Origin: an uncultured archaeon
GTDB taxonomy: Archaea; Thermoplasmatota; Poseidoniia; MGIII; CAYLMJ01
Length of the DNA: 64,000 nucleotides
Reading direction: 5' to 3'
Assembly: GCA_964384995.1 (NCBI GenBank)
Contig: CAYLMJ010000011.1
Coordinates: forward strand, 4,417-68,416
The translations under genes and the position numbers were made by a program. Every line of letters starts with the position of its first letter. Position 1 is the stretch's first letter. The notes beneath the pieces are model-generated. The model did not search any database. It saw only the letters and a list, made by a program, of their open reading frames with translations, and was not told where the DNA came from. Positions 28,299 to 61,339 of this stretch are shown here, in pieces.

Positions 28299-28338
28299 CA
28301 CCACAGAGACACAGAGAGCACAGAGATAGCACAGAGTT
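28299..28338. repeat. CACAGAG heptamer repeat element (4 direct units), copy 1 of 3
   Basis: caccacagagacacagagagcacagagatagcacagag. Units start at 28302/28310/28319/28330 (spacing 8, 9, 11). Lies between convergent stops at 28280 and 28363. Confidence 0.85.
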
Positions 28339-28362
28339 CATCTGTTGTTCAGATATCACGCC

Positions 28363-28977
28363 TCAAGGTTGCTGGAACAGCCAGTTGCTTGCCTGCCCCA
28401 CAGCTTCCATCATCTCGACCACGTAATCCGGCCTCTTATCGTCTCTCCAGCAGGGCATGCCGCCGCGGTCGATGTAGCCCAGGACCTGGTGGAAGACCGA
28501 CCGGGAAAGGATGATGTCGCCGATGGAGAGGATGTCGGTATCCCGATCCGAGGTGATGGGGATGGCGTGGGGGGCGGCGTACTGCAGGAGGAGGCGTTCC
28601 ACCGGTTCCCGGTTGCGATGGCCCTCGGGCTTCTGCTTGAAATCCTCCTGCCGCTCAGGGAAGGGGAACAGCTTGTAGACCTCGCCGATGAAGCCGGAGA
28701 GCAGGGTGCCCTGGATGGCGCCATGGAGACTGCCGATGTCCTCGGGTGATAGGATATGGAACTCCAGGGTCGTGTCAAGATTTGCCTCGACCTGCCCTGC
28801 CTTTGCTTTGCCCACCTCCCCAGCCAATGCCTCCTCTTGCTGTGCCCACTCGATTATCGCGGCGCAGAGGTCGGAGGCGAAGATGAAGTGGTCGTCGATT
28901 AGAAAGCAGTCGGTGTCGATGTTGAAGAAGCCGATGGGGATGTGGCCGCGGCTGAGGGAGTCGAAACCAAGGGGCAT
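28363..28977 (-). CDS. hypothetical protein (204 aa)
   Basis: Start moved to ATG 28977 (MPLGFDSLSRGHIPIGFFNID...) because the longer ORF's N-terminus is translated from the repeat element at 29023..29083. No family recognised. Confidence 0.4.
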   Translation of the reverse strand: MPLGFDSLSRGHIPIGFFNIDTDCFLIDDHFIFASDLCAAIIEWAQQEEALAGEVGKAKAGQVEANLDTTLEFHILSPEDIGSLHGAIQGTLLSGFIGEVYKLFPFPERQEDFKQKPEGHRNREPVERLLLQYAAPHAIPITSDRDTDILSIGDIILSRSVFHQVLGYIDRGGMPCWRDDKRPDYVVEMMEAVGQASNWLFQQP

Positions 28978-29022
28978 GAGTTTCACGAGGTTTGGGTCAG
29001 AGGAGTGATTATATGAAGAATA

Positions 29023-29083
29023 GACACAGATTTCACAGATTGCACGGATTATTTTAATCCGTGAGATCGGTGTAATCCGTGTC
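29023..29083. repeat. CAC(A/G)GAT heptamer hairpin element (3 direct + 3 inverted units)
   Basis: gacacagatttcacagattgcacggattattttaatccgtgagatcggtgtaatccgtgtc. Units at 9-nt spacing with the arms about 22/28 complementary. Lies just 3' of the HdrD-like gene. Confidence 0.8.
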
Positions 29084-29092
29084 AAATGATTA

Positions 29093-30445
29093 TCAGGATT
29101 TCGGCAGTGCCATCTCAACGATCTGGGCCAACTCGAATATCTTCACCTTCGACTTCATCTTCCGTAGCGTGTACCGGAAGTTGTTACAGCACATGGGACA
29201 GGGCGTCACGATGGCGTCCACCTCGCCCATTGCGTCCATCGCGCCCACTGCATTGGCTGGGGAGGCGTTGGTGGGCTCGCTGGGACCATTGTTTTCTTGG
29301 TCATCATCCTCGGCCTTTGCATCGTAGGTGATGGGCCGGGGCAGGCAGAGCTCCAGCTTGCGCCTGGCTATCTCCATGGCCTTCTCTCTCTGATGGGCCC
29401 ACATGCCGCCGCCGCCGCCACAGCACATGGCCTTCTCCCCCGTCGGGTCCATCTCCACCAGCTCCAGGCCCTCTATGGCCCGCAACACCTCCCGCGGCTC
29501 ATCGTACACTCCAGCCTCTCGTCCCAGCGAACACGGGTCATGGTAGGTCACCCGCATCGGTTCTGGCAACGCGAGGTCGATCTTCGTTGCAGGAGGAGGC
29601 GTGGTTGAGCTCTCTGCGACAGCAGGAGGCACAGACCCAACAGCAGGAGGAGGCGAGGGCTGTGTGTCGGCAGATATTGGCTCGTCCTCCGAGGCTTCCT
29701 GCGCATCCCCATTCTCAAGCAGGTACTGCGAGAGATGGAGCACCTCGATGTCACCCAGGTCGAGACCCATGCGATTGGGATAGAGGTTGGTGAAGGCGTT
29801 GAAACAGCCTGCACATGACACGACTACCTTCTTCACCCCGGCCTCCCGGAAGGCATCCAGGGTTCGCGTGGCAATCTCCCGGGCCGCTTCGTCAAGACCC
29901 AGCACCGACAGGGGCTCTCCACAGCAGGGCTCCTCGGGCAGGAGGCGGAAGCCGTCACCCACGTTCTGCAGGACCTTAGCCGTGGCCCGGGCCAGCCTGT
30001 GGGACATCATGGAGGGGGTGCAACCAACCCAGTACAGCGTCTCGGCATCCTCATTGGGCCGTATGCTATCGTCTAGCCACGAGGCCTTGGTGCGGGTCAG
30101 GGACTGGTAGGGACTGCCGGTGTCCAGGATGGTCTGGCCGGTCTGGTTCACAACCTCGGGGGCGTGACCCTCCTCCAGCGCCACTTTTCGCAGGGCCAGC
30201 ACCAGGTCGGGCAGGTCCAGGCCCTCTGTGCACAGCACCTCGCACCGGTCGCACTGGGTGCAGAGCCAGGGCACCTGACCCAGAAAGCCGGGGTCGCTGG
30301 CCAGCCCCAGCTGGAGTCGCCGGACCATGCGGCGGATGTGGAAGTCGGTGACCTCGAAGGTGGGGCAGGCGGCGGTGCAGGTGCCACACTGGATGCAGCT
30401 GCGGATGAGCTGGCCGTATGCATCACGGAGGTTCTGGCCGGCCAT
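29093..30445 (-). CDS. HdrD-like Fe-S protein (2x[4Fe-4S] ferredoxin domain + two CCG domains)
   Basis: CIQCGTCTAACP and CTQCDRCEVLC. CCG-type motifs CCGEP, SCAGCFN, HDPCSLGR, CCGGGGG, TPCPMCCNNF. A Pro/Ser-rich and an acidic insertion lie between the conserved blocks. Confidence 0.8.
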   Translation of the reverse strand: MAGQNLRDAYGQLIRSCIQCGTCTAACPTFEVTDFHIRRMVRRLQLGLASDPGFLGQVPWLCTQCDRCEVLCTEGLDLPDLVLALRKVALEEGHAPEVVNQTGQTILDTGSPYQSLTRTKASWLDDSIRPNEDAETLYWVGCTPSMMSHRLARATAKVLQNVGDGFRLLPEEPCCGEPLSVLGLDEAAREIATRTLDAFREAGVKKVVVSCAGCFNAFTNLYPNRMGLDLGDIEVLHLSQYLLENGDAQEASEDEPISADTQPSPPPAVGSVPPAVAESSTTPPPATKIDLALPEPMRVTYHDPCSLGREAGVYDEPREVLRAIEGLELVEMDPTGEKAMCCGGGGGMWAHQREKAMEIARRKLELCLPRPITYDAKAEDDDQENNGPSEPTNASPANAVGAMDAMGEVDAIVTPCPMCCNNFRYTLRKMKSKVKIFELAQIVEMALPKS

Positions 30446-30447
30446 GC

Positions 30448-32622
30448 TCAGCCACCTCCCCCATCGCCAGCTTCATCCCCATCCTCATCCACATCTTCAT
30501 CCTCTATCCCGTAGGCCTCGGCGTCCAGGCCCAACTTCTCGACCATGTCCTTCATGGTGGCCACGAACTTGGGACCGTCGGCCGCCGACATCCAGACGTT
30601 CCAGATGCGGTCGGTTTTGTAGCCCTTCTTCGCCAGCTTCTTCGTTAGGCGCTCGATGCGCTTTTGGCACTTGTAGTTACCGTTGATGTAATGGCAGGTG
30701 GGGAACTCACAGCCCGCCACCAACACCCCGCCGGCTCCCAGGTCCAAGGCCTGCTGGACCCAGTCGTTCTTCACCCTTCCCGAGCACATGACCCGGATGA
30801 GGCGGGCGTTGGGGGGATACTCGGCGCGGCTGACGCCGGCCAGGTCCACGGCGCCCATGGCGCACCAGTGACAGCAGAAGGCGAGTATCTTCTGCTCGGG
30901 CTCCAGGGCCAGGGCCGAGACGATCTGGGCCTCGATCTGCCGGTCGGAGTAGTGTATGATCTGGATGGCGTCGGAGGGGCACTCTGCGGCGCAGGTGCCG
31001 CAACCCTTGCACAGGGCCTCCAGGGCGTTGGGCACCTTCCGCTTGGCCGCCGGGTCCACGATCTCGATGGCGCTGTAGGGGCAGACCTTGGCGCAGAGGC
31101 CGCATTCGGAGCAGAGGTCGTGATCGATCTGGCAGATGATGCCAGGGGCCTCGATGTAGCCTCGGCGCATGGGTATGACAGCCCGCATGGCCGCCCCCAT
31201 GGCCTCCTCCATGGCCCAGCGCACGCCCTTGGGCGAACGGGCCCCGCCGCAGACATAGAGGCCGTCGCCGGCGAAGTCCAGGGGCGCCAGCTTGATGTGG
31301 GCCTCCTGGAAGTAGCCATCCTTGTCAGACGATACCTTTAGCTGGCCCTTCAGCTCCTCCACCGAGGGGTCACCGACCAGCGCCGTGGTGAGGACCGCCA
31401 GGTCCACGGGTATCTGGAGCTCCACATCCAGAAGCAGGTCCCTGGCCCGCACCATCAGACCGCCGTCATCCCCCATCACCACCTCGGGCGGGGTGTCGGG
31501 GTCATAGCGCACGAGGCGGATGTCATGGCCCTTCAGGGCCTGGCGGACGTAGTTGGCCTCCTCGCCCTGGACGTTTAGGTCGCGATAGAATACGAACACT
31601 GGAGCGGCAGGGTCCCGCTCCTTGAGGGTGATGGCGTTGCGGATGGAGGCCAGACAGCCCACGTTGCAGCAGCCCCGCTCAGCATTGCGCGAGCCGACGC
31701 AGTTGAAGATGGCCACCGCCTTTCCATCCACCTTGGAGGCCTTGGGGTCGGCCAGCATAGCCTCCAGTTGCATCTGGGTGATGACACCGGGATGAGAGCC
31801 AAAGCCGAACAGCCCCTGGGGCTCAAGCTCGCCCATGCCGGTGGCCACGATGATGGTGGAGACCTCCAGCTCGTCGCTGGAACCACCCTTGAGCTGTACC
31901 GAGTAGTTGCCGATGTAGCCGGAGATGGAGCCGGTCACCGTGTTGGTGTGGACCGTGATGTTTGTCGCGGCCTTCACCTCGGCCGCCTGGCGTTCAACCA
32001 TCTTGTGGGCCTCGATGTCGGCGGGGGCCAGCATGTGGAGTCGGTTCAGCAGGCCGCCCAGTCTCGCCTCCCGCTCCACGAGATGGACCTCGAAGCCCTG
32101 TCTCGCCACCCCCAGGGCCGCGGTCATGCCGGCGATGCCGCCGCCGAGGACCAGACAGGTCCGGCCCACCGACAGGCGTATCTCCTGGGCCGGCTCCAGC
32201 AGGCGGGCCTTGGCCACGCCCATGGCCACCAGGTCCATGGCCTTGCGGGTGGCCGCCCCGGGCCGGGAGCGATGGACCCAGGAGCTCTGCTCCCGGATGC
32301 TCACGAACTCCAGCAGGTAGGGGTTGAGGCCGGCCTCCTTCACCGCGTCCTTGAAGAGGGGTTCGTGGGTCCGGGGGGTGCACGAGGCGACGACCACCCG
32401 CTCCAGCTCGTGCTCGTTGATGAACGCCTTGATCTGGGCCAGGTAGTCGGCCGAGCAGATCCAGCGGCCCTCGTCCACGAAGACCACCCCCTCCAGGCCC
32501 TTGGCGTACTCCGCCACCGCCGGCACGTCCACGGTGCCCAGGATGTTGGAGCCGCAGTCGCAGACGAAGACGCCAACGCGGGGGTCCGGTTCATCGGCGG
32601 CCCGGTCAGCCATCGGCCTCAC
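30448..32622 (-). CDS. HdrA-like flavoprotein fused to an MvhD-like domain (QmoB-like architecture)
   Basis: N-domain VGVFVCDCGSNILGTVDV...ASCTPRTHEP, FAD fold LVLGGGIAGMTAAL, CSECGLCAKVCP and CKGCGTCAAECP. MvhD part FCCHWCAMGAVDLAG...RVMCSGRV...VAGCEFPTCHY. Confidence 0.85.
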   Translation of the reverse strand: MRPMADRAADEPDPRVGVFVCDCGSNILGTVDVPAVAEYAKGLEGVVFVDEGRWICSADYLAQIKAFINEHELERVVVASCTPRTHEPLFKDAVKEAGLNPYLLEFVSIREQSSWVHRSRPGAATRKAMDLVAMGVAKARLLEPAQEIRLSVGRTCLVLGGGIAGMTAALGVARQGFEVHLVEREARLGGLLNRLHMLAPADIEAHKMVERQAAEVKAATNITVHTNTVTGSISGYIGNYSVQLKGGSSDELEVSTIIVATGMGELEPQGLFGFGSHPGVITQMQLEAMLADPKASKVDGKAVAIFNCVGSRNAERGCCNVGCLASIRNAITLKERDPAAPVFVFYRDLNVQGEEANYVRQALKGHDIRLVRYDPDTPPEVVMGDDGGLMVRARDLLLDVELQIPVDLAVLTTALVGDPSVEELKGQLKVSSDKDGYFQEAHIKLAPLDFAGDGLYVCGGARSPKGVRWAMEEAMGAAMRAVIPMRRGYIEAPGIICQIDHDLCSECGLCAKVCPYSAIEIVDPAAKRKVPNALEALCKGCGTCAAECPSDAIQIIHYSDRQIEAQIVSALALEPEQKILAFCCHWCAMGAVDLAGVSRAEYPPNARLIRVMCSGRVKNDWVQQALDLGAGGVLVAGCEFPTCHYINGNYKCQKRIERLTKKLAKKGYKTDRIWNVWMSAADGPKFVATMKDMVEKLGLDAEAYGIEDEDVDEDGDEAGDGGGG

Positions 32623-34021
32623 CTCCCCACTCAGCCGCCCTGAGACTGGCGGCGATGGCCTGGGTCACCGATTCGGAGATGTCGATGGGACCTGTGGCCC
32701 CGCCGCAGAGGTAGATGCCCTCGACAGTGGATTCCAGGGGGGCGAAGACCGGGTCCCTCTCGGCGAAGTAGCCCCGCTCGTTCAGCTCCAGGCCCAGCCG
32801 CTTGGCCAGCCTGGCGTTGCGCTGTCCCGGCAGGAGCCCGGCGGCCAGCACCAGCAGGTCCAGCTCCAGGTCATGCAGTTCGCCGGAGTCCAGGTCCTCG
32901 TAGCGCACGGTGAGGCACTTCGTCTCCGGGTCCTGAAAGACATCCGAGGGCTTCCCCTTGAGGTACCTGACGCCATGGCCCTGGGCCCGCCTGACGAAGT
33001 CGTGAAAGCCCTTGCCGTAATCCTTGAGATTGTGATGGAAAACGTAGGCCTCCACCTCCGGGTCGTGCTCCTTGGCGATGATGGTCTGCTTGGTGGAGAA
33101 CATGCAGCAGACCTTGGAGCAGTAGGGTAGGTGACCTCCCTGATCTGCCTTCAGCTCGGCCTGGGGTACCTCGGGTAGCTCATCCTTCAGTCCCACCTCC
33201 CGGCCCACGCACTGGACCCAGCCGATGCGCTTGGGATGCTTGCCGTCGGAGAGCCGGATGATGTCGCCCTCGGTGGGCCCCCCGGCGTTCATGAGCCGCT
33301 CGAACTGCATGGTGGTCAGGACGTTGTCGTATGTGGCGTAGCCGTAGTGGTCGGCCGGGGGCTCGTAGGGTTCCACCCCGGTGGCCACGATGATGCTCTT
33401 GATCCTCAGCTTGTGACGCTTGTCCTTCTGCCACAGCAGGACCGCCTCGGCCCCCTCCTTGCGGCAGGCCACCACGCAATCGGCTATCTGGCACTCCCGG
33501 CACTGGGAGCAGTCGATGATGCAGCGGCCCACGCAGGCGCCAGCATGGTCCATGTGGCCAAAGCGGCACAGGGGGCTCACCACGTAGGTGTTGGGCACGG
33601 CCTGGGGGAAGGGGAGGCCGATGAGCTTGCGGATGCCGCCCAGCTTGCCATCCAGCTCGTCGGGCAGGGAGACCGGGCAGGCCTCGGCGCACTTGGCACA
33701 GCCCTTGCATCTGTCCTCGTCCACGAACTTGGCCTTCTCCACCACCGTGACCTTGAAGTCGCCAGCCTTGCCCTTGACCTTGCGGACGATGGAGTTGGTG
33801 AGCAGGGTGATGTTGGGATGGGTCTGCACCTCGTACATCTTGGGGGCCTCGATGCAGATGGAGCAGTCGTTGGTGGGGAAGGTCTTGTCCAGCCGGGCCA
33901 TGAGCCCGCCGATGGATGGGGTGTCGTCCAGGAGGTAGACCTGCTCGCCAAGGTCGGCCAGGTTGAGGGCGGCCTCGATTCCGGCGATGCCTCCTCCGAT
34001 GACCAGGACCCCGGCCGTCAT
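32606..34021 (-). CDS. HdrA-like flavoprotein, core only (FAD domain with inserted ferredoxin)
   Basis: VLVIGGGIAGIEAALNLA, hallmark LDKTFPTNDCSICIEAPKM, CKGCAKCAEACP, CSKVCCMFS. 17-nt overlap with the downstream HdrA/MvhD gene. Confidence 0.85.
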   Translation of the reverse strand: MTAGVLVIGGGIAGIEAALNLADLGEQVYLLDDTPSIGGLMARLDKTFPTNDCSICIEAPKMYEVQTHPNITLLTNSIVRKVKGKAGDFKVTVVEKAKFVDEDRCKGCAKCAEACPVSLPDELDGKLGGIRKLIGLPFPQAVPNTYVVSPLCRFGHMDHAGACVGRCIIDCSQCRECQIADCVVACRKEGAEAVLLWQKDKRHKLRIKSIIVATGVEPYEPPADHYGYATYDNVLTTMQFERLMNAGGPTEGDIIRLSDGKHPKRIGWVQCVGREVGLKDELPEVPQAELKADQGGHLPYCSKVCCMFSTKQTIIAKEHDPEVEAYVFHHNLKDYGKGFHDFVRRAQGHGVRYLKGKPSDVFQDPETKCLTVRYEDLDSGELHDLELDLLVLAAGLLPGQRNARLAKRLGLELNERGYFAERDPVFAPLESTVEGIYLCGGATGPIDISESVTQAIAASLRAAEWGGEADG

Positions 34022-34206
34022 GGTCCCGCCTCCCGTTGGAAGGTTGGTGGGATGGGCAGAGGGCTGGCAAGCGGGTTGTGGGTCATGGGTCTGCTCCGGT
34101 CAGGATGCAAGGTCATGGGTCAGGTCTGATCATGGTGATGGGGTGGGTCTCTTTGTCTTCTGCCGTCCTCGTTGATGTACTACATGTAATGACGTGGCCA
34201 TGGCGC

Positions 34207-36312
34207 TCAGAGTGCCACCGGCTCCTGGAACTCGCCAAAGACCTCGCGGAAGAGGGCCGAGATCTCCCCGACCGTGGCGTAGGCCTCCACCGCCTCCATG
34301 ATGGCGGGCATGAGATTCTCGTCGCTCTTGGCCGTTGCCTCCAACCGTTGTAACGCCGCGTCCACGGCGGCCTGGTCCCGACTGGCCTTGATATCCTTCA
34401 GGCGCCCGATCTGTTCCTGTGCGGCATCCGGCTCGTAATCGTGAAGCTTCACCGCCCGTTCCTGGTCTCGCTCGGCACTGCGGTACTTGTTGACCCCCAC
34501 CTTGACGAACTCCCCCGACTGGACCGCCCGCTCGTGGGCGTAGGCCTGGGCCGCCACCTGGCGCTGGAGACTGCCCTCGGCGATGGCCTGCACGATGCCG
34601 CCCCACTCCCGGACCCGCCCCATCTCCTTGATGATGCGCCCCTCCAGCTCGCTGGTCAGGGACTCGATGTAGTAGGAGCCGCCCAGGGGGTCCACGGTGT
34701 CGGCCAGGCCCATCTCCTCGATGAGGATCTGCATGGTGCGCAGGGAGACCAGGGCCGCCTCCTTGGAGGGGATGGTGTAGGCCTCGTCGTAGGAGCAGAG
34801 GGCCATGGTCTGGGTGCCCGACAGGGCGGATATGAGAGCGTAGTAGGCTCCCCGCACGATGTTGTTCAGGGGCTCCTCGATGGTGAGCCCACCCCCGCCG
34901 CCGCCGGCGATCATCTTCAGCTTCTGGGCCTTGGGATTGGCCACCCCCAGCTCGTCGCGCACCAGTTTGGCCCACAGCCGCCGCCCCGCCCTGAACTTGG
35001 CCACTTGCTCGAAGAGGTTGCCGTGGATGTCGAAGTTGAAGCTCACCTGGGAGGCGAAATGTTCGGGGTCCAGGCCCCGTCCCTCCATGCGGCGCACGTA
35101 CTCTGTGGCAATGGCGAAGGCGTAGGCCATCTCCTGCACCGGATCGGCCCCGGACTCGCGGATGTGGTAGCCGCACACCGAGACCGGGTAGTACTTGGGC
35201 ACATGGCGGGCGCAGTGCTCCCACACGTCGATGACCAGGCGGATGGAGGGTTCGACAGGATAGATCCACGTGCCGCGACCAACGAACTCCTTGAGGATGT
35301 CGTTCTGGGCGGTGCCCCGGATCTGGTCCATGGCCAGGCCCTGCTTGCGGGCCACCACCAGGTACATGGCCACCAGGATGGGGGCGGTGGAGTTGATGGT
35401 CAGCGAGGTGGAGATGCGGTCCAGGGGGATGGCGTCGAAGGCCACCTCCATGTCGGCCAGGGTGTCCACGGCCATGCCCACCCGGCCCACCTCGCCCGCG
35501 GCCCGGGGGTCGTCGGAGTCGAGCCCCATCTGGGTGGGCAGGTCGAAGGCCACGTTGAGGGCGTTCTGGCCCTCGCCGATGAGGTACTTGAAGCGCTCGT
35601 TGGTCTGGGAGGGGGTGCCGAAACCGGAGTACTGGCGCATGGTGAAGGGCCGCGCCCGGTACATCAGGTCGTGGATGCCCCTGGTGAAGGGGAAGTCGCC
35701 AGGCCGGCCCACCTCGGAATCCAGGTCCAGGTCGGCCACCTGCTCGGGGCCGTAAACCGGCAGGGGCTCGACGCCCGATTCCAGGACCACCTTCCGGGCC
35801 TGGGGCCGGCGGGGTGGGGGCGCCCCCGTTTTCTTACCTGCCGCCGGGGTCTCTTCTGCCTCCTTTGCTGGATCCTCAGGAGCCGCCACTTCCCGTCCTC
35901 CGACCCTGGCCACCGCCTCCCGCAGGCCCGCGGCGATGTCCTCCAATCGGGCGCTGGTGGGGAAGATGTCCACGACACCCAGCTCCCGGAGGGGCCCGTG
36001 GTCCCGGGCCGGGATGTTGCCACCGAAGAACACCGGGACCTCGGAGAGCCCCTCGGCGCTCATGCGCTCCCTCAGGTGCTCGGCGATGGGCAGATGGGCG
36101 CCCGAGAGGATGGAGAGCCCGATGGCGTCGACATCCTCCTCCAGGGCCGCGGCCACGATCTGGTCCACGGTCCTGTGGAGTCCGGTGTAGATGACCTCGA
36201 AGCCGGAATCGCGGAGGGCCAGGGCCACCACCTTGGCCCCCTGGTCGTGGCCGTCCAGGCCCGGTTTGGCGATGAGCACGCGGATGGGTCTTGGAGCTGT
36301 ATCGTCTGACAT
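34207..36312 (-). CDS. methylmalonyl-CoA-mutase-type B12 enzyme, single polypeptide with the B12-binding domain N-terminal to the catalytic barrel
   Basis: N-terminal IRVLIAKPGLDGHDQGAKVVA (DxHxxG), a Pro/Ala/Lys linker, then FPFTRGIHDLMYRARPFTMRQYSGFG...LNVAFDLPTQMGLDSD...NDILKEFVGRGTWIYP. Start at ATG 36312 (MSDDTAPRPIRV...). Confidence 0.85.
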   Translation of the reverse strand: MSDDTAPRPIRVLIAKPGLDGHDQGAKVVALALRDSGFEVIYTGLHRTVDQIVAAALEEDVDAIGLSILSGAHLPIAEHLRERMSAEGLSEVPVFFGGNIPARDHGPLRELGVVDIFPTSARLEDIAAGLREAVARVGGREVAAPEDPAKEAEETPAAGKKTGAPPPRRPQARKVVLESGVEPLPVYGPEQVADLDLDSEVGRPGDFPFTRGIHDLMYRARPFTMRQYSGFGTPSQTNERFKYLIGEGQNALNVAFDLPTQMGLDSDDPRAAGEVGRVGMAVDTLADMEVAFDAIPLDRISTSLTINSTAPILVAMYLVVARKQGLAMDQIRGTAQNDILKEFVGRGTWIYPVEPSIRLVIDVWEHCARHVPKYYPVSVCGYHIRESGADPVQEMAYAFAIATEYVRRMEGRGLDPEHFASQVSFNFDIHGNLFEQVAKFRAGRRLWAKLVRDELGVANPKAQKLKMIAGGGGGGLTIEEPLNNIVRGAYYALISALSGTQTMALCSYDEAYTIPSKEAALVSLRTMQILIEEMGLADTVDPLGGSYYIESLTSELEGRIIKEMGRVREWGGIVQAIAEGSLQRQVAAQAYAHERAVQSGEFVKVGVNKYRSAERDQERAVKLHDYEPDAAQEQIGRLKDIKASRDQAAVDAALQRLEATAKSDENLMPAIMEAVEAYATVGEISALFREVFGEFQEPVAL

Positions 36313-40080: not shown

Positions 40081-40251
40081 GCCGGTCCGTCCATTACCAA
40101 TAAGCCACTTCGGCAACAGCGGTGGCCATGTTTAGGTAAGGCAGAGGCCATACATAGGCCAGGCTGAGGTTATACTTAGGTCATGCACAGACCATGTAGA
40201 TGCCATGCCACGGCCATGCCGCGGCCATGCCCTGATGCAAAGAAAGTTACG

Positions 40252-52413: not shown

Positions 52414-52476
52414 AGCTGAGGATCAACGCGGGGACCACAACCAGGCTATCCTCCTCCGCCTCACCCGGTCAGCCGG

Positions 52477-54068: not shown

Positions 54069-54081
54069 AACTCGGTCCCGG

Positions 54082-54825
54082 TCAGTCGGCGAACCGGTCC
54101 AGGGAGGCCTGCGGTCTCAGCAGGCGGTCCACGGTCTTCCAGGTCCGACGAGTGCCCGGAGGCAACTGGTGATTGTCACGCCAGTAGCGCTTGATAAACT
54201 CTTGGGTGACCGGGTCGGATGGATAGCCCGAGCCGACGTCATCGTCGACCTGCTCGGCCAGCCTGGCGATGGCGCGGTCGCGGGCCACCTTGGCCAGGAT
54301 GGAGGCGGCCGCCACCACTGGATAGCGGGTGTCGGCCTTGTGCTCGCACACCATCTCGATGGGTGGCAGAGGAGCATCAGCGGTGGCCACCGCCAGCCGG
54401 TTGTTCACCTCCCGGGCGTAGTTGGCGGCGTTGGAATCGGCGGCATCCAGGTAGGCGGTGACCCGCAGTTGAGCCGAACGAGAGGCGTCAGCTTCCCCGG
54501 CCAGCCGGGCCACGACCAGGGCTTTCAGGACGCTGGCGAAGAGCCGGGCCTCGATGCGATTGAGGGTCATCTGGGAGCGCAGGGCGTCCAGGTCCTCGGC
54601 CTCGAGGAAGACCAGCTCCCACTCCGTGTTATCCTTGATCTTGACCTCCAGCTCCTCCCGGCGTTTTGGCGTCAGGAGCTTGGAATCGCGCACTCCCAGT
54701 CTCCTCAGCGGTCCATCGTCTGAGACGGCCACCCCGCCCACGACCAGGGGTCCAAGGACCGGCCCCCGTCCGGCCTCATCGACTCCGCAGATCATGCGTC
54801 GTCGATTCAGTTGGTCGACCGGCAT
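54082..54825 (-). CDS. rnhB: ribonuclease HII
   Basis: ICGVDEAGRGPVLGPLVVGGVAV..., DSKLLTPKRRE, ASILAKVARD. Confidence 0.9.
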   Translation of the reverse strand: MPVDQLNRRRMICGVDEAGRGPVLGPLVVGGVAVSDDGPLRRLGVRDSKLLTPKRREELEVKIKDNTEWELVFLEAEDLDALRSQMTLNRIEARLFASVLKALVVARLAGEADASRSAQLRVTAYLDAADSNAANYAREVNNRLAVATADAPLPPIEMVCEHKADTRYPVVAAASILAKVARDRAIARLAEQVDDDVGSGYPSDPVTQEFIKRYWRDNHQLPPGTRRTWKTVDRLLRPQASLDRFAD

Positions 54826-54928
54826 AGCCGTTCTCCTCCGTAGCCCCTCATGAATTCGGGGCTCACGGCCTCATCAACTCCGCAGATCATGCGTCCCCCA
54901 AGCCATGGGAGACCTCATCTGAATTGGC

Positions 54929-55012
54929 AACCACAGAGACACAGAGAGCACAGAGAGAGCACAGAGAATGTACTTTGTGTCGTGCTCTGTGAACTCTGTG
55001 ACCCTGTGGTGG
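54929..55012. repeat. CACAGAG heptamer element, copy 2 of 3, the only copy with an inverted arm (long imperfect hairpin)
   Basis: Direct units at 54932/54940/54949/54960. Inverted CTCTGTG units at 54985 and 54994, plus degenerate cctgtgg at 55003. Lies between the priS stop (55027) and the rnhB start (54825). Confidence 0.85.
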
Positions 55013-55026
55013 ATCTTGGAACAACA

Positions 55027-56265
55027 TCAGGCCTCCTCCCTGGCTGACAGGGCCAGGGTCGCCCATTTGCGGCAGAGAAAGTAGACGGCGGCGAAGGTGG
55101 GCAGCTCGGCCACCTCACTGGGCTCCAGTCCGTAGGCCTCGCCCCTGAGGGTCACCTTGCCCGGCCTGGGTCCCGCCCTGACCTTCACCGGCCTGTCGTC
55201 CAGGACCACCGCCTGCTGGTAGGGGTCGAAATCCTGCATCCCTTCCAGGGGCACCGGTACGACGGCCAGACCGGTACCGCCGTGGAGCGAGCCCGGCAGG
55301 CGGATGAGTCGATGGGTGTCGGTGGTCACAGGCTCGTCGGTGTGGCCCCGGCTGTCGGCGACGGCCTGTTCCAGCCAGTGGTCGCGCAGGGCGGAGGGGG
55401 CGGCCTCCCAGACCTGCTGGAGCTTGGCTCCCTTCTTCACCAGCTTGGTGAGCTTCTCCACCGTCTTGGGGCCCACGCCCTTGATCTGCATCAGTTGGGG
55501 CAGGCTGTCCAGCCGCTTGGGATCGCCCAGGACCCGCATGTAGGCCTGGACGGTGCGGGAGAGCCGGCCGCCCCAGCCGGGGCTGTCGGGGGAGGGCAGG
55601 ACCTTGATCACCTGGGGGTGCTCCTTGCCCTTGTAGCGGGTCCAGGTCTTCACCCGGTTGACCAGGACCTTGTCCAGGTCAAGGCCGGTACTGGTGATGT
55701 AGTCGACGATCTCCCGCCGGCCGTGGCTGTCCAGCTTGAGGAGCCTTGGGTCCCGGACGTGGATGTGATAGCCCCGGCCTCCCGAGAAGTAGACCTTGAG
55801 CCAGCGGGGCTCCAGGCCCAGGTCCCCCAGCAGGAACTCGTGGACCAGCCGGTTGGTCTCGACCAGGGTCTGCTCCATGAGCCTGGGGAAGGGGGTGCCC
55901 TCCGCCGCCTCCATGTGGTCGGCGTCCAGGTCGAACACCAGGTCGGCCCCCTGCCAGACCTTGTCCACCATCTTTGCCGCCGAGGGCTTGCGATAGTAGG
56001 CCACCGAGTGGTAGGCGTGGGCCGGATGGGCATGATGGAGATGGTCCTTCAGCGAGCGCCGACTGGTGAAGGTGAGGTGGCGCCGCATCGACCGGCCCCA
56101 GGGGATGAAGCCCCACTCCCGGTGGTTGAAACGGGGAGGCAGGTCCAACTTCGCCTGGCGATAGTAGGCAGTAAAGCATTGGGTCAGGAAGCGCTGGGTG
56201 TGGGCCTGCTCCATGTCGGCCAGCAGGGGCGTTTCAATCCCCTCCGGCAGGGTCTGGCTGGCCAT
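55027..56265 (-). CDS. priS: archaeal/eukaryotic DNA primase catalytic (small) subunit
   Basis: REWGFIPWG...RH, HSVAYY, catalytic LVFDLDADH, SGGRGYHIHV. The alternative ATG 56214 would remove the 32-nt overlap with the upstream gene. Confidence 0.85.
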   Translation of the reverse strand: MASQTLPEGIETPLLADMEQAHTQRFLTQCFTAYYRQAKLDLPPRFNHREWGFIPWGRSMRRHLTFTSRRSLKDHLHHAHPAHAYHSVAYYRKPSAAKMVDKVWQGADLVFDLDADHMEAAEGTPFPRLMEQTLVETNRLVHEFLLGDLGLEPRWLKVYFSGGRGYHIHVRDPRLLKLDSHGRREIVDYITSTGLDLDKVLVNRVKTWTRYKGKEHPQVIKVLPSPDSPGWGGRLSRTVQAYMRVLGDPKRLDSLPQLMQIKGVGPKTVEKLTKLVKKGAKLQQVWEAAPSALRDHWLEQAVADSRGHTDEPVTTDTHRLIRLPGSLHGGTGLAVVPVPLEGMQDFDPYQQAVVLDDRPVKVRAGPRPGKVTLRGEAYGLEPSEVAELPTFAAVYFLCRKWATLALSAREEA

Positions 56266-56947
56266 CGCCGTTCTTGTTGTCTTCCGCTCCCTCTACCTCA
56301 TCAACTTCCGGTTCGCCTCCCTTCTTCAGTTCCTTTTCATCCCTGAAATCGTTATCATCATCCTCTGCATCCCTCTCCACTTCTTCCTCAACCTCATCAT
56401 CTTCCTCATCCTCGTCGGTCTCGAGATCCTCGTCCAGGGGTCCCTCATCCAGGGAGCGAGAGGCCTCCTCCACCTCACCCATCGTCATCTCCACGGGGAC
56501 CAACCCCTTCAGGTCGTCGGGCGTCACCCCCATCGCGGCCCAGGCCTTCCGGGCCTTCAGGAACTCGGGCAGCAGGTAGCCCACTCCCAACCGGTGGGTG
56601 AACTTGAACTTCCAGGGCAGGCGGGGCAGACTCACCGCCAGCAGGCGCAGGAGGCGGGTGACCTCCCGTCGGGAACCACCATCGAACCGGCTCACCTCCA
56701 GGAAGTGGAGCTGGCCGCCGTGACCCGGTGATTCGTCCCAGCATTCGATATCGAACCGGGCCGGATGGGAGACCTTGAAGCGGAAGGTGCGGGCGAAGCG
56801 GTCCAGGGTGATGACGAAGGTGAACCTGGAGAAGTGACGCTGGCCGATGCGGTACTCGCAGGTGTAACCCAGCTCCCTGAGGCTCTCCCGCAGCACCAGT
56901 GCCAGGGAGCGGGCGTTGGAGGAGCTGGGAAGTTTCCGGGCCGTCAT
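56234..56947 (-). CDS. orphan protein with a ~150-aa basic domain and an extremely acidic tail, embedded between pheT and priS
   Basis: 237 aa. MTARKLPSSSNARSLALVLRESLRELGYTCEYRIGQRHFSRFTFVITLDRF..., tail DEDLETDEDEEDDEVEEEVERDAEDDDNDF. Starts 6 nt after the pheT stop. Confidence 0.4.
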   Translation of the reverse strand: MTARKLPSSSNARSLALVLRESLRELGYTCEYRIGQRHFSRFTFVITLDRFARTFRFKVSHPARFDIECWDESPGHGGQLHFLEVSRFDGGSRREVTRLLRLLAVSLPRLPWKFKFTHRLGVGYLLPEFLKARKAWAAMGVTPDDLKGLVPVEMTMGEVEEASRSLDEGPLDEDLETDEDEEDDEVEEEVERDAEDDDNDFRDEKELKKGGEPEVDEVEGAEDNKNGDGQPDPAGGD

Positions 56948-56953
56948 GGCCCC

Positions 56954-58657
56954 TCAGAGCTCGAACTCGCCGGCGATGAGCGGATGGGCCAGGTCCCAGG
57001 CCACGATGGTCGAAGGGGCCAGCTCCCCGAAATGACCCAGGGTCTGCCCGTCAACCATGACCCTGGCACACCGGCCAGGGATGTACTCGGGTCGCTGGAC
57101 CCCTTCCAGCTTCAGCTCCAGTCCCTGGTCCAGATTCAGGCGGCCCAGCAGGCTCTCGGTCAGCCCCTTGGCCCGGCTGAAGTTGGCCCGGGCCGCCAGC
57201 TCCACGAAGGCCATCCGCTGGTGGTTGGCGTGGTCCCGGACCACCTCGCCCACCTCGAAGAGCCGCTGGGGCAGTTCGCGATGGGTGTTGGAGGCCAGCA
57301 CCTCCATGAGCCCGGGAAGCAGGGAGGTGCGCATCAGGCTGTACTCGACACCGATGGGGTTGGCCATGCGGGTCACCTGGACCGTCGCTCCATCATCCGA
57401 CGCGATGGCCCCGCCATCTGCGACCTCGACCCCCATCTTCTGGAACTGGGCCGCCGGTCCGGACAGCGAGAGGGTCATGACCTCCTGGAAGCCCAGGCCC
57501 ACCAGGGTCTCCCTGGCGGCCTCTGCCCGCTCCTGCGGCTCCCGACGGGAGCCGAAGGTCATGGAGCCGGGCAGGGTCTCCTTGGAGTTGAGGTAGCCCA
57601 GGCCGATGGCGGCCTCCTCCACCAGGTCCACCCGATGCAGGATGTCCCAGCGGTAGGCCGGCACCTGCACCTCCAGCAGGTCCTGGTCGGGATCGGCAAG
57701 CTTCGCATCCAGCCCCATGCGCTGGAAGGCCAGTTGCAGGAGCTCCGGGTTCTGCTCCCAGCCCAACAGCCGCTCCAGGTAGGCCAGCTCCACCGACCAG
57801 CTCTGGGGTGCCAGGTCGGGGGTGACCAGGGTCTTGCCCGAGGTGGGGCCCAAGTTAGGGTCCTCGGGGTAGATCACCTTCACCGCCTCGACGGTCCCTT
57901 CCCGCTCGGCCAGGGCGCAGGCCACGATGTTCAGGGTCTGGGTGACCGCGGCCAGGTCCAGACCGGTGACATCCAGCAGGATGTTGGTGGTGGAATCGGT
58001 GACGGTGGTGACGGTGCCGTTGATGATGGGTGGGAAGGAGAGCACCTGGTCGTTGGCATCGAAGATGATGGGATAGCGGTCGAAGCCCTCCATCAGGTGG
58101 GCGTAATCGATACCCTTGGGATGCTGGGTCAGGATCTGGTCCAGGTCCATCTCCCGGGTCTCCTGGAGGGGCACGAACGAGACCTCGCGGGGCTTCACGG
58201 CGGTGTAGCGGAAGGGCGGCGTCAGATCGTCCATGTCATGGACGCCGATGGAGACCTTGCTGCGCTTGCGGCCCAGGGTCAGGTGGAGCTTCTCCTGGAG
58301 CTCCATCATTGCGATGATGGCGTCGTCGTCCATCTCCACCCCCCTTACCGCGCCGCTGACCACCCAGGGTCGGACCCCAAGCACCGGCGGCTCGACCCGC
58401 ATCTCCATCTTGGCGGGGGCGACCGGGTAGTCCTGCAGGCCCGGCTTTCGCCCGGTGAAGGCCCGCATGGCCCGGGCCACGCCCTCCACCGAGTAGAGGT
58501 CGGGTCGGTCGGGGAAGAACTCCACCGACAGCTCCTCGCCGTCGACCCGGTCCACGTCGGCGCCGATTAGGGGCACCAGCTCCAGGAACTCATCCTGGGA
58601 CAGGTCCAGGCCGGACAGGCGGGCAAAGTCGCTGAAATAGAAGTTGATGACCGGCAT
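56954..58657 (-). CDS. pheT: phenylalanine--tRNA ligase beta subunit (archaeal type)
   Basis: 567 aa. MPVINFYFSDFARLSGLDLSQDEFLELVPLIGADVDRVDGEELSVEFFPDRPDLYSVEGVARAMRAF, with B3/4 and B5 blocks following. Confidence 0.9.
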   Translation of the reverse strand: MPVINFYFSDFARLSGLDLSQDEFLELVPLIGADVDRVDGEELSVEFFPDRPDLYSVEGVARAMRAFTGRKPGLQDYPVAPAKMEMRVEPPVLGVRPWVVSGAVRGVEMDDDAIIAMMELQEKLHLTLGRKRSKVSIGVHDMDDLTPPFRYTAVKPREVSFVPLQETREMDLDQILTQHPKGIDYAHLMEGFDRYPIIFDANDQVLSFPPIINGTVTTVTDSTTNILLDVTGLDLAAVTQTLNIVACALAEREGTVEAVKVIYPEDPNLGPTSGKTLVTPDLAPQSWSVELAYLERLLGWEQNPELLQLAFQRMGLDAKLADPDQDLLEVQVPAYRWDILHRVDLVEEAAIGLGYLNSKETLPGSMTFGSRREPQERAEAARETLVGLGFQEVMTLSLSGPAAQFQKMGVEVADGGAIASDDGATVQVTRMANPIGVEYSLMRTSLLPGLMEVLASNTHRELPQRLFEVGEVVRDHANHQRMAFVELAARANFSRAKGLTESLLGRLNLDQGLELKLEGVQRPEYIPGRCARVMVDGQTLGHFGELAPSTIVAWDLAHPLIAGEFEL

Positions 58658-58780
58658 CCTTCACCCCAGGGTGCCCGCCACCTTAAGCTTAGATGCCTGG
58701 CCTGGGCTGAGGGGATGGGATTCAGATCGCAAAATAGCCTCCCGGCTGGGCCCAAGGCCGAGCTTGAGCGGAATGAGGGT

Positions 58781-58888
58781 TCAGCCTTTCTTGAGCCGGC
58801 GCTCGCGCTTGCGGCGGCGCATCTTCTTCTTGCGCCATTTCCAGCGCTGTTGGCCGTGCTTCTTCCAGACCCGGGAACTGCGTTTCAT
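58781..58888 (-). CDS. rpl41e: ribosomal protein L41e
   Basis: Internal ATG of ORF 58781..58996 gives the 35-aa peptide MKRSSRVWKKHGQQRWKWRKKKMRRRKRERRLKKG, the archaeal L41e pattern (RWKW...KRxRRLKR). Confidence 0.7.
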   Translation of the reverse strand: MKRSSRVWKKHGQQRWKWRKKKMRRRKRERRLKKG

Positions 58889-59017
58889 GGGATCACTGGG
58901 GTTGCGGTTCGGGTTCCGGAACGTGCCGGTTCCCGACCGGGTTGCGGCCAAGCTGGTGGTGGTATTTAAGTCCCATACCAACCCGGGATGGCTCAAGGAT
59001 GGTCGGGACCCGAGGGT

Positions 59018-59644
59018 TCAGACGAGGTCGTACCGCCCAGGTGTGGGCGAGTAGATGAGCCCCGCCTCCTGAAGGCGGCCAACCCACCCCTCCACGGCTT
59101 TGGCCCACTTTGCGTCACTGTCCGGGTCATCATCGGTGACCTTGACCACGCCCAGCCGCCGAAGGAGCTCCCGAAGCTCGCTCTCATCGAAATCATCCTG
59201 AAGATTCCCCAGCTCCCTGACCGCCGTGGTCACCCGCTCCCAGCGACTGCTGGCCCCCGAGATGGCGGCCGCCCGCAAGGCCATTGTGAGAGGGTCCAGT
59301 TTGGACTGGGCTCTTCCGCCATCGGGTCTGGGTCGACCGGGACCTGCGGATGAATTGTCGGTCTCGGGTGGTTCCAGCCTTCGGGCCCTCGGCCGACCAT
59401 GGTCCACCAGGATGGCCTCACCGAACTCGGGGGGCAGGTCCCCCTTCAACGATTCGGCCACCCGGCCCACGGCCTCGGGCAGCTGCTTGGCCTCCTCCAC
59501 GCGGGCCCAGACCTTGAGCCGCTGGACGTTCAGGGCCTTGTTGCATCGGGGACAACGGCTGGTCTTGATGGAGAGGGCCAGGCCCTTGGGCCAGCGACAC
59601 TGGGGGCAGACCACCACACCGTAATCATGGGGGGTCGCCAGCAT
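59018..59644 (-). CDS. zinc-ribbon protein (DUF1922/DUF5817-like N-terminus) with a C-terminal winged-helix-like domain
   Basis: MLATPHDYGVVVCPQCRWPKGLALSIKTSRCPRCNKAL...; C-terminus LQEAGLIYSPTPGRYDLV. The upstream ATG 59809 would add a Pro/Ala-rich leader. The ORF beyond that overlaps asnS and is rejected. Confidence 0.5.
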   Translation of the reverse strand: MLATPHDYGVVVCPQCRWPKGLALSIKTSRCPRCNKALNVQRLKVWARVEEAKQLPEAVGRVAESLKGDLPPEFGEAILVDHGRPRARRLEPPETDNSSAGPGRPRPDGGRAQSKLDPLTMALRAAAISGASSRWERVTTAVRELGNLQDDFDESELRELLRRLGVVKVTDDDPDSDAKWAKAVEGWVGRLQEAGLIYSPTPGRYDLV

Positions 59645-59884
59645 CCAGGCCAGGGGCAGGCAGACGAGGCGGCTCTGTCGTGACCGGTGCGGTCGGTCCG
59701 AACACCTCTTGGTGGCAGGGGCAGGGGCAGGAGTCGGAGCCGGGGCTGGAGCCGTAGCAGGGGTTCGTGCGAGAGCGGGAGGCAAGCTGGTCTTTCTCTT
59801 GCGTTTCATCGTACCTGGCAATTTGGCCCTGGGCCGCTGGGGTCCTCTGCACAATCCTTTTGGTCCCCTTAAAGCTGTCAGGCC

Positions 59885-61270
59885 ATGCGGGACTATCCCG
59901 AGTTTCCAGAACCGGAGGGTTGGACCTCCATCAGCGCCATCCAGCGAGGCGAGCACGACGGACAGAGGGTGAAGGTCCGGGGCTGGATATACCGCACCCG
60001 CTCCTCGGGTTCCATCGCCTTCGTGGTGGTCCGCGACACCACCGGCGTCATCCAGTGCACCGTGAAGAAGGGCCGCGCCCCCGATGAGGACCTGGAAGGG
60101 GCCAAGAAGGCCCTGCTGGAATCCTCGGTGGTGGTTGAGGGGCAGGTCGCCGAGGACAAGCGAGCACCCGGAGGCCACGAGCTGCAGGCCACCGGTTTCG
60201 AGGTGCTCCATTACGCCGAGCCCTTTCCCATCACCCAGGACCAGTCCGACGAGTGGCTGCTGGACAACCGCCACCTGTGGCTGCGCTCCCGGGACATGAA
60301 CGCCACGATGCGCATACGGGCCACCTTCTTCGGAGCTTTCAGGGAGTTCTGGGATGGCAAGGGCTACACCGAGGTCCAGTCCCCCAGCTTCGTCCGCGAC
60401 GCCTGCGAGGGTGGCTCGACCCTCTTCAACGTCTACACCGACGACGACAGTGCCCCGTTGCCCCCGGGCGCCGAGCCAGAGCCAGGCACCCCCCCCTCGG
60501 CCCAGAGGTTCTACGCTTACCTGACCCAGTCCTGGCAGTTATACGCCGAGGCCATGATGTTCTCCATCGAGAAGATATACACAATCGCCCCCAGCTTCAG
60601 GGCCGAGAAGTCCCGGACCCGCCGTCACGTGTCGGAGTTCTGGCACGCCGAGGTTGAGGCGGCCTGGACCCACAACGAGCAGATGATGGCCCTGGACGAG
60701 GAGATGCTGTGCCACCTGCTGGACCGGGTGCTGGAGAACCACGAGCCCGAACTGGAACAGCTGGGCCGGGACGTGGCGCCCCTGAAGGCCATCGAGGCCC
60801 CGTTCGAGCGGATGAGGTACCAGGAGGTGCTGGACGAGCTCAACAACATGGGCTTCGACCTGGCGTGGGGCGATGACTTCGGCTACACCGAGGAGAAGGC
60901 TCTGACCGCCCAGCGGACCATACCGCTCTACATCACCCACTTCCCCAAGGAGAAGGGGTTCTACCATCGGCCCGACCCGGCTGAGCCCAAGTCCCTGGTC
61001 TGCCACGACCTGCTGGCCCCCGAGGGCTACGGGGAGATAATCGGTGGCGGCGAGCGGGTGTGGGACCCGGACGAGCTGATGGCGCGCATCGAGGAGGAGG
61101 ACCTGGACCCCGAGAGCCTGGGCTGGTACCTGGACCTGCGCAAGTACGGCTCGGTGCCCCATTCGGGATTCGGCCTGGGCCTGGACCGGGCGCTGTCGTG
61201 GATCTGCGGCGCCGACCACATCAAGCATGTGATACCGTTTCCGAGGACCATGCGGCGGACGCGGCCTTGA
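59885..61270 (+). CDS. asnS: asparagine--tRNA ligase (class IIb)
   Basis: OB-fold RVKVRGWIYRTRSSGSIAFVVVRD, motif 2 FRAEKSRTRRHVSEFWHAE, YLDLRKYGSVPHSGFGLGLDR. Confidence 0.85.
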   Translation: MRDYPEFPEPEGWTSISAIQRGEHDGQRVKVRGWIYRTRSSGSIAFVVVRDTTGVIQCTVKKGRAPDEDLEGAKKALLESSVVVEGQVAEDKRAPGGHELQATGFEVLHYAEPFPITQDQSDEWLLDNRHLWLRSRDMNATMRIRATFFGAFREFWDGKGYTEVQSPSFVRDACEGGSTLFNVYTDDDSAPLPPGAEPEPGTPPSAQRFYAYLTQSWQLYAEAMMFSIEKIYTIAPSFRAEKSRTRRHVSEFWHAEVEAAWTHNEQMMALDEEMLCHLLDRVLENHEPELEQLGRDVAPLKAIEAPFERMRYQEVLDELNNMGFDLAWGDDFGYTEEKALTAQRTIPLYITHFPKEKGFYHRPDPAEPKSLVCHDLLAPEGYGEIIGGGERVWDPDELMARIEEEDLDPESLGWYLDLRKYGSVPHSGFGLGLDRALSWICGADHIKHVIPFPRTMRRTRP

Positions 61271-61291
61271 TGGCGTGACCTCCTCGGATCA

Positions 61292-61339
61292 ACCACAGAG
61301 ACACAGAGAACACAGAGTAATCACAGAGAACTCACAGAG
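61292..61339. repeat. CACAGAG heptamer element, copy 3 of 3 (5 direct units)
   Basis: accacagagacacagagaacacagagtaatcacagagaactcacagag. Units at 61294/61302/61311/61322/61333 (spacing 8, 9, 11, 11). Starts 22 nt after the asnS stop. Confidence 0.85.

Follow-up and report, generated by a model that had tools for sequence, protein, structure and literature searches.

In a 64,000-nucleotide stretch of DNA from an uncultured archaeon (the window; contig C11:4417-68416 of the studied genome, G000, an assembly of 2.63 Mb with 61% GC in 79 contigs), three arrays of the heptamer CACAGAG lie just beyond the ends of genes. Our analysis indicates that these arrays are probably the arms of a hairpin cassette acquired by horizontal transfer, in copies that are non-autonomous or have lost one half. 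A full-length member of the family, in which two inverted heptamer arrays enclose the gene of a predicted small nuclease, is found elsewhere in the same genome. The second locus of the window is a gene-less copy with both arms, and the first and third are most simply read as half-elements left after deletion of one arm.

Three arrays in the window share an uneven unit spacing

The preliminary description of the window had reported a 17-mer (CCACAGAGACACAGAGA) common to the three loci, units that follow at +8, +9 and +11 nt (with a further +11 at locus 3), and an order too conserved for slippage. All three statements were borne out. The window has exactly three copies of the 17-mer (28301, 54931 and 61293), each on the + strand, and none appeared in 100 dinucleotide-preserving shuffles; the unit starts are exactly as described.

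28296-28336, + strand: locus 1, a solo arm with head GATCAC (28296-28301) and CACAGAG at 28302, 28310, 28319 and 28330 (spacing 8-9-11)
54926-55010 including the head, no strand assigned: locus 2, a complete gene-less palindrome; the palindrome itself covers 81 nt (54930-55010)
61287-61339, + strand: locus 3, a solo arm with head GATCAAC and CACAGAG at 61294, 61302, 61311, 61322 and 61333 (spacing 8-9-11-11)

The lone heptamer is mildly enriched in the window (19 observed vs 12.6 expected), as chance similarity or local slippage of simple repeats would predict. We regard this explanation as already refuted, since the 17-mer is expected 0 times and the non-uniform 8-9-11 spacing recurs in 24 arms of G000 as well as in unrelated phyla, with 0 of 301 genomes positive for a reversed-pattern control.

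Locus 2 revealed the architecture of the element. Its head (GGCAAC) is followed by a left arm (54932-54966) with CACAGAG at 54932, 54940, 54949 and 54960 (8-9-11), a 6-nt loop (AATGTA, 54967-54972) and a right arm (54973-55008) that carries CTTTGTG at 54973, CTCTGTG at 54985 and 54994, and CCCTGTG at 55002, spaced 8-9-12 when counted from the outside and closed by GT at 55009-55010. The inverted units at 54985 and 54994 are exact, and those at 54973 and 55002 have one mismatch each. The hairpin folds at -45.6 kcal/mol (RNAfold, z = -7.3). Locus 1, with the spacers A, AG and ATAG, had no partner arm in a relaxed search for degenerate arms. The earlier impression that the elements have neither terminal inverted repeats nor an open reading frame (ORF) had to be revised: locus 2 has an inverted partner arm, most copies in the genome are paired, and the full-length member carries a gene.

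We found no description of the element in Rfam or in the searchable literature, in agreement with the earlier failure to match it to a known repeat family. Rfam 15 gave no match at gathering score across the whole window, rRNA included, and a literature search with the heptamer returned unrelated matches only. None of the 3 papers in which GxxExxY appears, or of the 2 that name PF13366, deals with the element.

A full-length cassette encodes a predicted minimal nuclease

G000 C5:88184-88717: full cassette, a + arm and a - arm, both spaced 8-9-11, around a 130-codon ORF

The arms of the cassette are inverted and lie about 460 nt apart. The ORF matches PF13366 (PDDEXK_3, E = 1.8e-42) and TIGR04256 ("GxxExxY protein", E = 1.6e-44), and is the sole GxxExxY/PF13366 gene in the G000 assembly. 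The interior of the cassette has 37% GC vs 65% in the 2-kb flanks, and the shift falls exactly at the inner arm ends. The GxxExxY family is very large (at least 8,000 candidates); the nearest relatives are 60-68% identical, and those with a named host are mostly bacterial.

An alignment of 40 sequences showed invariant D74, E84, K86, Q98 and Y102 (Q98-x3-Y102). No solved structure in the PDB matches the protein by sequence. The best solved structural match of its AlphaFold model (pLDDT 90) was Cas4 SSO0001 (4IC1; probability 1.0, TM 0.56 over about 100 residues), with further matches to the nuclease domains of lambda-exonuclease, AddB, MGME1 and Dna2; the model is unlike Hjc-type junction resolvases. 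The D...ExK and QxxxY motifs are shared with Cas4 SSO0001 and the RecB-family nuclease domains. In contrast to Cas4, the cassette protein comprises the catalytic core alone (about 125 residues), lacks the Fe-S cluster domain and has no CRISPR context. Based on the model, the cargo is a predicted minimal RecB/Cas4-type PD-(D/E)xK nuclease core of about 125 residues.

Paired arms fold into a stereotyped rod

For a census of the genome we allowed at most one mismatch per heptamer unit and then applied the relaxed search for degenerate partner arms. The census returned 46 arms at 33 loci, so that about 30 loci lie beyond those noted in the window, and the lack of further copies that would have refuted the preliminary description was not seen. 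After the relaxed search, the tally stood at 19 gene-less inverted pairs, one arm-gene-arm cassette and 12 partner-less arms. Counted from the outside, two main spacings occur, four units at 8-9-11 and three units at 9-9, and nearly every arm is headed by a short sequence ending in AC (TTCAC, ATCAC, TCAAC). All three window loci fit the arm definition of a short head (TTCAC/AAC) and at least three tandem C-R-C-N-R-A-G heptamers 1-4 nt apart.

The gene-less palindromes consist of two inverted arms around a loop of 6-20 nt and measure 60-85 nt in total. Paired elements fold into a single rod whose outer helix has 9 bp (ACCACAGAG/CTCTGTGGT) and which also contains three helices of 7 bp and either a hexaloop or a longer loop. 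Folding energies range from -34 to -47 kcal/mol, and z-scores lie between -4.7 and -10. Spacers in G000 are mostly non-pairing, with 12 of 57 spacer positions pairable vs 321 of 336 unit positions. Non-complementary spacers are not a rule for the whole family (103 of 148 spacer positions are pairable in bacterial copies). The heptamers and the spacer lengths are conserved, and the spacer letters are free. The constraint on the heptamers and not on the spacers would also be compatible with the earlier idea of a protein-binding array.

The solo arms, which are unable to fold, retain perfect units. Two origins for them were considered and rejected. As 3' stumps of cassettes they should retain traces of the gene, and a tblastn search of 60 family proteins against their inner flanks gave a best E of 0.04, with both positive controls recovered. 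Several point off contig ends, as the ends of a large multicopy insertion sequence (IS) might; those contig ends are tRNA genes with 55-nt assembly overlaps. At C36:22148-22182 and C54:15866-15901, a solo arm sits upstream of a tRNA gene (distance about 100-130 nt), its inner end facing that tRNA. Tandem duplications were seen at C48:16-138 (88 nt) and C52:18188-18269 (47 nt); each includes a whole head-plus-arm unit, and the differences between copies are confined to positions outside the heptamers.

Elements that are short, lie between genes, form palindromes and occur in many copies with a patchy distribution could be ordinary miniature inverted-repeat transposable elements (MITEs) of a DDE transposon, or repetitive extragenic palindromes (REPs) and their REPIN pairs mobilised by a RAYT (Y1 HUH) transposase. 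We consider this highly improbable here. No paired G000 copy has a direct repeat in its 15-nt flanks, and hence none shows a target-site duplication. No larger element with these ends was found, and copies at contig ends abut tRNA genes, not an IS. The sole ORF found between such arms is the PD-(D/E)xK nuclease. Finally, REP/REPIN-RAYT identity requires a Y1_Tnp (PF01797, RAYT-type) gene flanked by the repeats, and no Y1_Tnp gene was found in G000 (about 90% complete) or in the distant genome G047 described below, with controls scored in 6 of 14 genomes.

Arms and nuclease co-occur in a patchy distribution

The arm is absent from all 39 genomes in the sample of the same order. In the phylum sample of 301 genomes it was found in seven, whereas the reversed pattern was found in none. 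The PF13366 nuclease is present in 26 of the 301 genomes, including all seven with arms (Fisher P = 1.6e-8, a statistic that ignores relatedness and genome size), and at least 8 of 11 further nuclease genes of the phylum are framed by tandem-word arms. G047 showed a burst of 18 near-identical arms. This genome also contains PF05635 (four-helix-bundle) genes, which we rejected as an alternative cargo as they have no CACAGAG arms within 1.5 kb.

To look beyond the phylum, one genome per prokaryotic species was scanned with the pattern CACAGAG-N-CACAGAG-NN-CACAGAG. At least 119 exact-arm loci were found, in Planctomycetota, Acidobacteriota, Verrucomicrobiota, Chloroflexota, Cyanobacteriota, Myxococcota, Desulfobacterota, Chlamydiota, Bacteroidota and others, as well as in Methanothrix. 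The matches listed place the exact arm in over a dozen bacterial phyla. Their outer heads once more read CAC or AAC, and the fourth unit, where present, stands at +11 in 20 of 32 cases. Six listed arm loci encode a GxxExxY homologue 51-57% identical to the archaeal protein, and in four of these the gene begins or ends 17-53 nt inside the arm. The locus L108 (Phycisphaerales) is a complete cassette, 8-9-11 arms flank both sides at L058 (Pyrinomonadaceae), and these two and L102 are bacterial full-length members enclosing a PF13366/TIGR04256 gene. The 74 pairs of + and - arms among the listed loci are mostly less than 150 nt apart, with a few at 300-450 nt; gene-less pairs outnumber cassettes by about 63 to 4. 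At L094, an intermediate, a 36-residue 5' stump of the gene lies between the arms, which indicates that the gene was lost rather than gained.

A scan starting from the gene gave a similar picture. In a set of 80 metagenomic GxxExxY loci identified through the protein, tandem-word arms were present on both sides in 42, on one side in 26 and on neither in 12, i.e. at 68 of the 80 genes. The arm words belong to the class C-R-C-N-R-A-G (CACAGAG 33, CACGAAG 13, CGCAGAG 8, CACGGAG 6, CGCGGAG 5, and others). Placed on a tree of 77 nucleases, the arm word (assigned automatically; decay of an arm can mimic a switch) changes 32 times. Shuffled labels gave 41.6 changes on average and at least 36 in every shuffle, and 12 is the lowest number possible. 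Having fewer changes than the shuffles, arms and gene tend toward joint inheritance, not strictly so. A coherent clade of about ten nucleases shares CACGAAG arms, and in the close pair L181/L183 the head, the two arms and the gene all align collinearly, the arms decaying unit by unit. On the Phycisphaeraceae contig JBBDRF010000071.1 (L169), two palindromic elements in tandem, about 170 nt long, flank the GxxExxY gene, and the arm topology is reversed relative to the usual one (- arm upstream, + arm downstream).

These data bear on the main rival explanation, in which the hairpins are independent REP-like repeats and the GxxExxY gene is a secondary, homing-endonuclease-like invader of their loops, with the arms serving as homology. 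The gene-less palindrome would then be the empty site, and the spread of the arrays would owe nothing to the nuclease. The excess of gene-less copies (19:1 in G000, and likewise among the listed bacterial pairs), the frequent change of the arm word with close proteins in arms of different words, the G000 hairpins of the CACGGAT/CACAGAT words that have no matching nuclease, and the sharp GC boundary exactly at the inner arm ends would all fit such an invader. It is harder to reconcile with the significant clustering of the word on the protein tree and the CACGAAG clade, with the single collinear unit of L181/L183, with the L094 stump, and with the presence of the nuclease in each of the seven arm-positive genomes of the phylum. 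It also leaves the spread of the hairpins unexplained, as neither G000 nor the burst genome G047 has a RAYT-type gene. On balance we think an invader of this kind unlikely.

Most sites are not shared with the sister species

G000 was compared with G001, a sister species and the sole other genome of the genus in the comparison (83% complete). G001 contains about 20 CACAGAG arrays, mostly at sites that are empty in G000, and the reverse is also true; about 12 of them adjoin genes whose G000 orthologues have no array. At locus 1, G001 has a 1.9-kb rearrangement and no CACAGAG array. At locus 3, the gap between the same two genes holds an unrelated array with an 11-nt period and no CACAGAG array. 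At locus 2, only the arm on the priS side is kept, and the other arm is gone together with about 35 nt of flank, which shows how deletion turns a pair into a solo arm. Between the two species the units of this shared arm differ at 3 of 28 positions and the spacers at 5 of 7 (P = 0.003), which shows constraint on the heptamers. At the C52 site mentioned above, the 47-nt tandem duplication of head and arm in G000 is seen relative to G001, and the copies differ only in head and spacers.

We also compared public contigs of the same population that encode identical flanking proteins at loci 2 and 3 (12 and 17 contigs, respectively); all of them were base-identical there, so that no strain-level presence or absence was seen.

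In G001 the arms of the nuclease genes use other words. Two such genes are present, one with arms in ACGCAGAT/ACGCTGAT and one with arms in CACGGAT/CACAGAT. G000 in turn has about ten CACGGAT/CACAGAT palindromes, two of them inside the window:

29025-29081, no strand assigned: palindrome of the CACAGAT/CACGGAT words, CACAGAT tt CACAGAT tg CACGGAT, loop, ATCCGTG ag ATCGGTG ta ATCCGTG, spacing 9-9
5229-5275, no strand assigned: second CACGGAT/CACAGAT-word palindrome, three units, loop and two inverted units

The former lies about 700 nt from locus 1 and has the same design as the CACAGAG hairpins. A rule of one genome, one word and one nuclease was rejected, since the match is only partial.

Elsewhere in G001, a single intergenic gap (L158, 350-720; 67 nt in G000) packs three word-hairpins (CACAGAG, ACGCTGATTA and CACGGAT), which could reflect nesting or an insertion hot spot. 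An (AGAC)n microsatellite breaks up a degenerate left arm at L156 (about 960-1000), which indicates that arms can seed simple repeats.

Elements lie close to stop codons of unrelated genes

The gene neighbours were taken from crude ORF calls outside the window and, for loci 2 and 3, from gene calls on public contigs. Locus 1 sits between two convergent genes, an ORF with a Fer4 domain (27849-28280, +) and an ORF at 28363-29118 (-), and begins 21 nt past the stop codon at 28278-28280. Locus 2 lies between the stop of priS (55027-55029, -) and the RNase HII gene (54082-54825, -); the array first noted is 60 nt from the priS stop, and the whole element ends 16 nt from it. Locus 3 begins 23 nt past the stop (61268-61270) of a class IIb aminoacyl-tRNA synthetase gene (59885-61270, +), and a convergent Amphi-Trp gene lies on its other side (about 61454-61729, -). 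The distances of 20-60 nt given in the preliminary description are thus approximately right, and AGTTCAT was found, as described, after two copies (loci 1 and 3). Of its gene names, priS stands (PF01896), the ferredoxin is a weak Fer4 assignment (Pfam, E = 2.5e-4), and the supposed asnS is a class IIb aminoacyl-tRNA synthetase (PF01336 and PF00152).

By the crude gene calls for G000, 13 of the 29 gene 3' ends that adjoin an element lie 10-26 nt away from it, and between tandem genes the element is always closer to the upstream stop than to the downstream start. The genes beside arrays are unrelated to one another. A gene for a 596-aa membrane protein (PF09594, GT87-type) contains one paired copy of 66 nt (C66:3257-3322) that keeps the reading frame and has no stop codon. 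It adds 22 codons, presumably translated, to a loop found to be hypervariable when homologues of 76-78% identity are compared.

Given this placement, the arrays might instead serve the host, by recruitment or from the outset, as phased sites at gene 3' ends on which a protein that binds DNA or RNA docks, for example as 3' untranslated region stability or processing elements or as boundary elements. The likeness to cassette arms would then tell of their origin and not of their present function. The tight placement past stops speaks for it, as do the heptamers and spacer lengths kept while spacer letters vary (in pairing within G000 and in the priS-site comparison), the perfect units of solo arms that cannot fold, and two arms that persist at the same sites in both species. 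Yet the neighbouring genes have nothing in common, most sites are unshared between G000 and G001, one copy is in frame within a coding gene, and we found no candidate host binding protein. Moreover, arms are missing from the 39 genomes of the same order and from 294 of the 301 of the phylum; being absent from almost all relatives, they cannot be something on which conserved host machinery depends. Proximity to stop codons is also expected from purifying selection against promoter disruption. We give docking sites a low probability.

A terminator had been among the roles proposed earlier. No run of four or more T follows the window elements (the following sequences are GGTTGCC, TTCATCTG and TTGAGTTC), and identity with an intrinsic or archaeal oligo-T terminator was rejected on this ground. 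Of the roles listed in the preliminary description, a decayed miniature mobile element fits best.

The nearest described design is found in 23S rRNA

The nearest described design is that of the ORF-bearing intervening sequences (IVS) of 23S rRNA, known in Coxiella, Leptospira and Salmonella (PMC4990558). These lie inside 23S rRNA helices and are excised from the RNA by RNase III; they have a plain 28-bp stem, and their ORF encodes the four-helix-bundle S23p protein (PF05635). Their mobility has been suspected and never explained (PMC4990558). IVS and heptamer cassettes are alike in size (about 430-530 nt), in a terminal inverted repeat that forms a long stem around one small ORF, in a GC content below that of the host, in a sporadic distribution suggestive of horizontal transfer and in a suspected mobility that lacks an explanation. 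Unlike IVS, the heptamer elements lie past protein-coding genes (one inside a gene), encode a PD-(D/E)xK nuclease and have arms of phased tandem heptamers. Identity with IVS was rejected: all window copies lie between protein-coding genes, the window has no Rfam rRNA, and the cargo is PF13366, with PF05635 absent from both G000 and G001.

With REPs, bacterial interspersed mosaic elements (BIMEs) and REPINs, the heptamer elements share the form of short extragenic palindromes in tens of copies, often just past stop codons, single or in inverted pairs, that flank a presumed mobilising gene and show no target duplication. A REP is one imperfect hairpin, 20-40 nt long and headed by GTAG, that a Y1 HUH enzyme mobilises. 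By contrast, heptamer arms have 3-5 units at fixed spacing, accompany a Cas4/RecB-like gene and no Y1 gene, and use the same word across phyla and domains. Gene-less copies resemble MITEs in being non-autonomous and in keeping only the inverted ends of a longer element, with the gene-stump intermediate at hand; they differ in lacking target-site duplications and a DDE transposase, and the "autonomous" form is only about 0.5 kb long. Identity with MITEs was rejected, as there are no direct repeats in the flanks and no cognate autonomous transposon. Rickettsia palindromic elements (RPEs) are 100-150 nt long, are known only from Rickettsia and are not known to have tandem heptamers or a nuclease gene. 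The C66 copy is like them in being a palindromic repeat in frame within a protein-coding gene (RPEs can be translated). A CRISPR array requires repeats of 24-40 nt with unique spacers of similar length and was rejected for units of 7 nt and spacers of 1-4 nt.

A proposed cassette spreading with its own nuclease

Our reading of the arrays as arms of cassette copies entails that the element is, or was, mobile and would have entered the lineage by horizontal transfer, as suggested by its patchy distribution, species-specific sites and foreign composition. Gene-less copies would derive from cassettes by internal deletion and would rely in trans on a function encoded by the cassette. This function (most probably the nuclease) may read the phased heptamers as cis sites, either on DNA folded into a hairpin or cruciform or on single-stranded DNA. 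Locations just past stop codons would be tolerated or preferred insertion sites and not signs of a host function.

Several observations weigh against this interpretation. The arm word switches many times on the nuclease tree, with 32 changes where 12 would suffice, and a 65%-identical homologue of the G000 protein has CACGAAG arms while those of 55-57% identity have CACAGAG arms. Within the genus, the incomplete assembly of G000 holds no nuclease gene matching its CACGGAT/CACAGAT palindromes, and that of G001 holds CACAGAG arrays and no nuclease with CACAGAG arms. The frequent word changes and the imperfect match of nuclease and hairpin words argue against a simple model in which each nuclease recognises its own word. 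The solo arms have no remnant of a gene or second arm by relaxed arm search and tblastn of the inner flanks. The G000 copies are diverged and show no sign of a recent burst, and a host function could be read from the two arms that both species keep at orthologous sites. From G000, G001 and the public contigs, neither a transposition event nor an empty-site junction nor a target duplication was definable. Exact insertion boundaries are not readable because the intergenic DNA of G001 is too diverged; in the cleanest empty-site comparison (G001:C113 vs G000:C26) the difference amounts to about 165 nt and is not just the element. Lastly, Cas4/RecB-type nucleases are to our knowledge not known as transposases, and binding or cutting of the arms is something that we infer.

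As a more speculative possibility, put forward tentatively, the family may be an undescribed cross-domain minimal mobile element of about 0.5 kb. Its inverted phased heptamer arrays would provide an outside-in 8-9-11 "ruler" that fixes the hairpin register, and its spread would depend on a Cas4/RecB-type nuclease of approximately 125 residues, with no part for recombinases of the DDE, HUH, serine or tyrosine types. Gene-less and half copies might then persist at gene 3' ends, even in frame, because their heptamers are still bound or converted.

In the searchable literature the GxxExxY family appears only as one of unknown function with multiple transfers (PMC3424549). GxxExxY/PF13366 is among the largest small-protein families without a known function, and the tie to phased heptamer hairpins gives it a concrete candidate substrate. 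The link also suggests that DNA may move without any known transposase family, and the same design may explain the long-puzzling origin of ORF-bearing 23S rRNA IVS. For annotation, it would explain the "orphan" intergenic repeats that number dozens per genome in archaea and in many phyla, and flag such repeats as markers of horizontal transfer between domains.

Other repeats near the arrays

Tandem arrays with a period of 11 (and 22) nt occur in the window at 5766-5871 and 40133-40231, e.g. CGTATAGAGAA and CTACCGTTTAC, and sometimes share long intergenic gaps with CACAGAG arrays. They form a separate and far larger family in G000, and a link between the two was rejected, as the five co-locations are not clearly above expectation. 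In G001, period-11 arrays stand in the gaps (L013 and L015) where G000 has CACAGAG loci 1 and 3. The 1.9-kb insert at L015 (C186:2450-4700), downstream of the ferredoxin-like gene, contains a second copy of the 3' end of that gene, AT-rich small ORFs and 11-nt arrays. A further motif, CGACGATAGG, lies 20 nt inside locus 3 (61360-61369) and was also seen beside arrays at the orthologous G001 site, at G001 L154 and on G000 contig C19 (about 17300).

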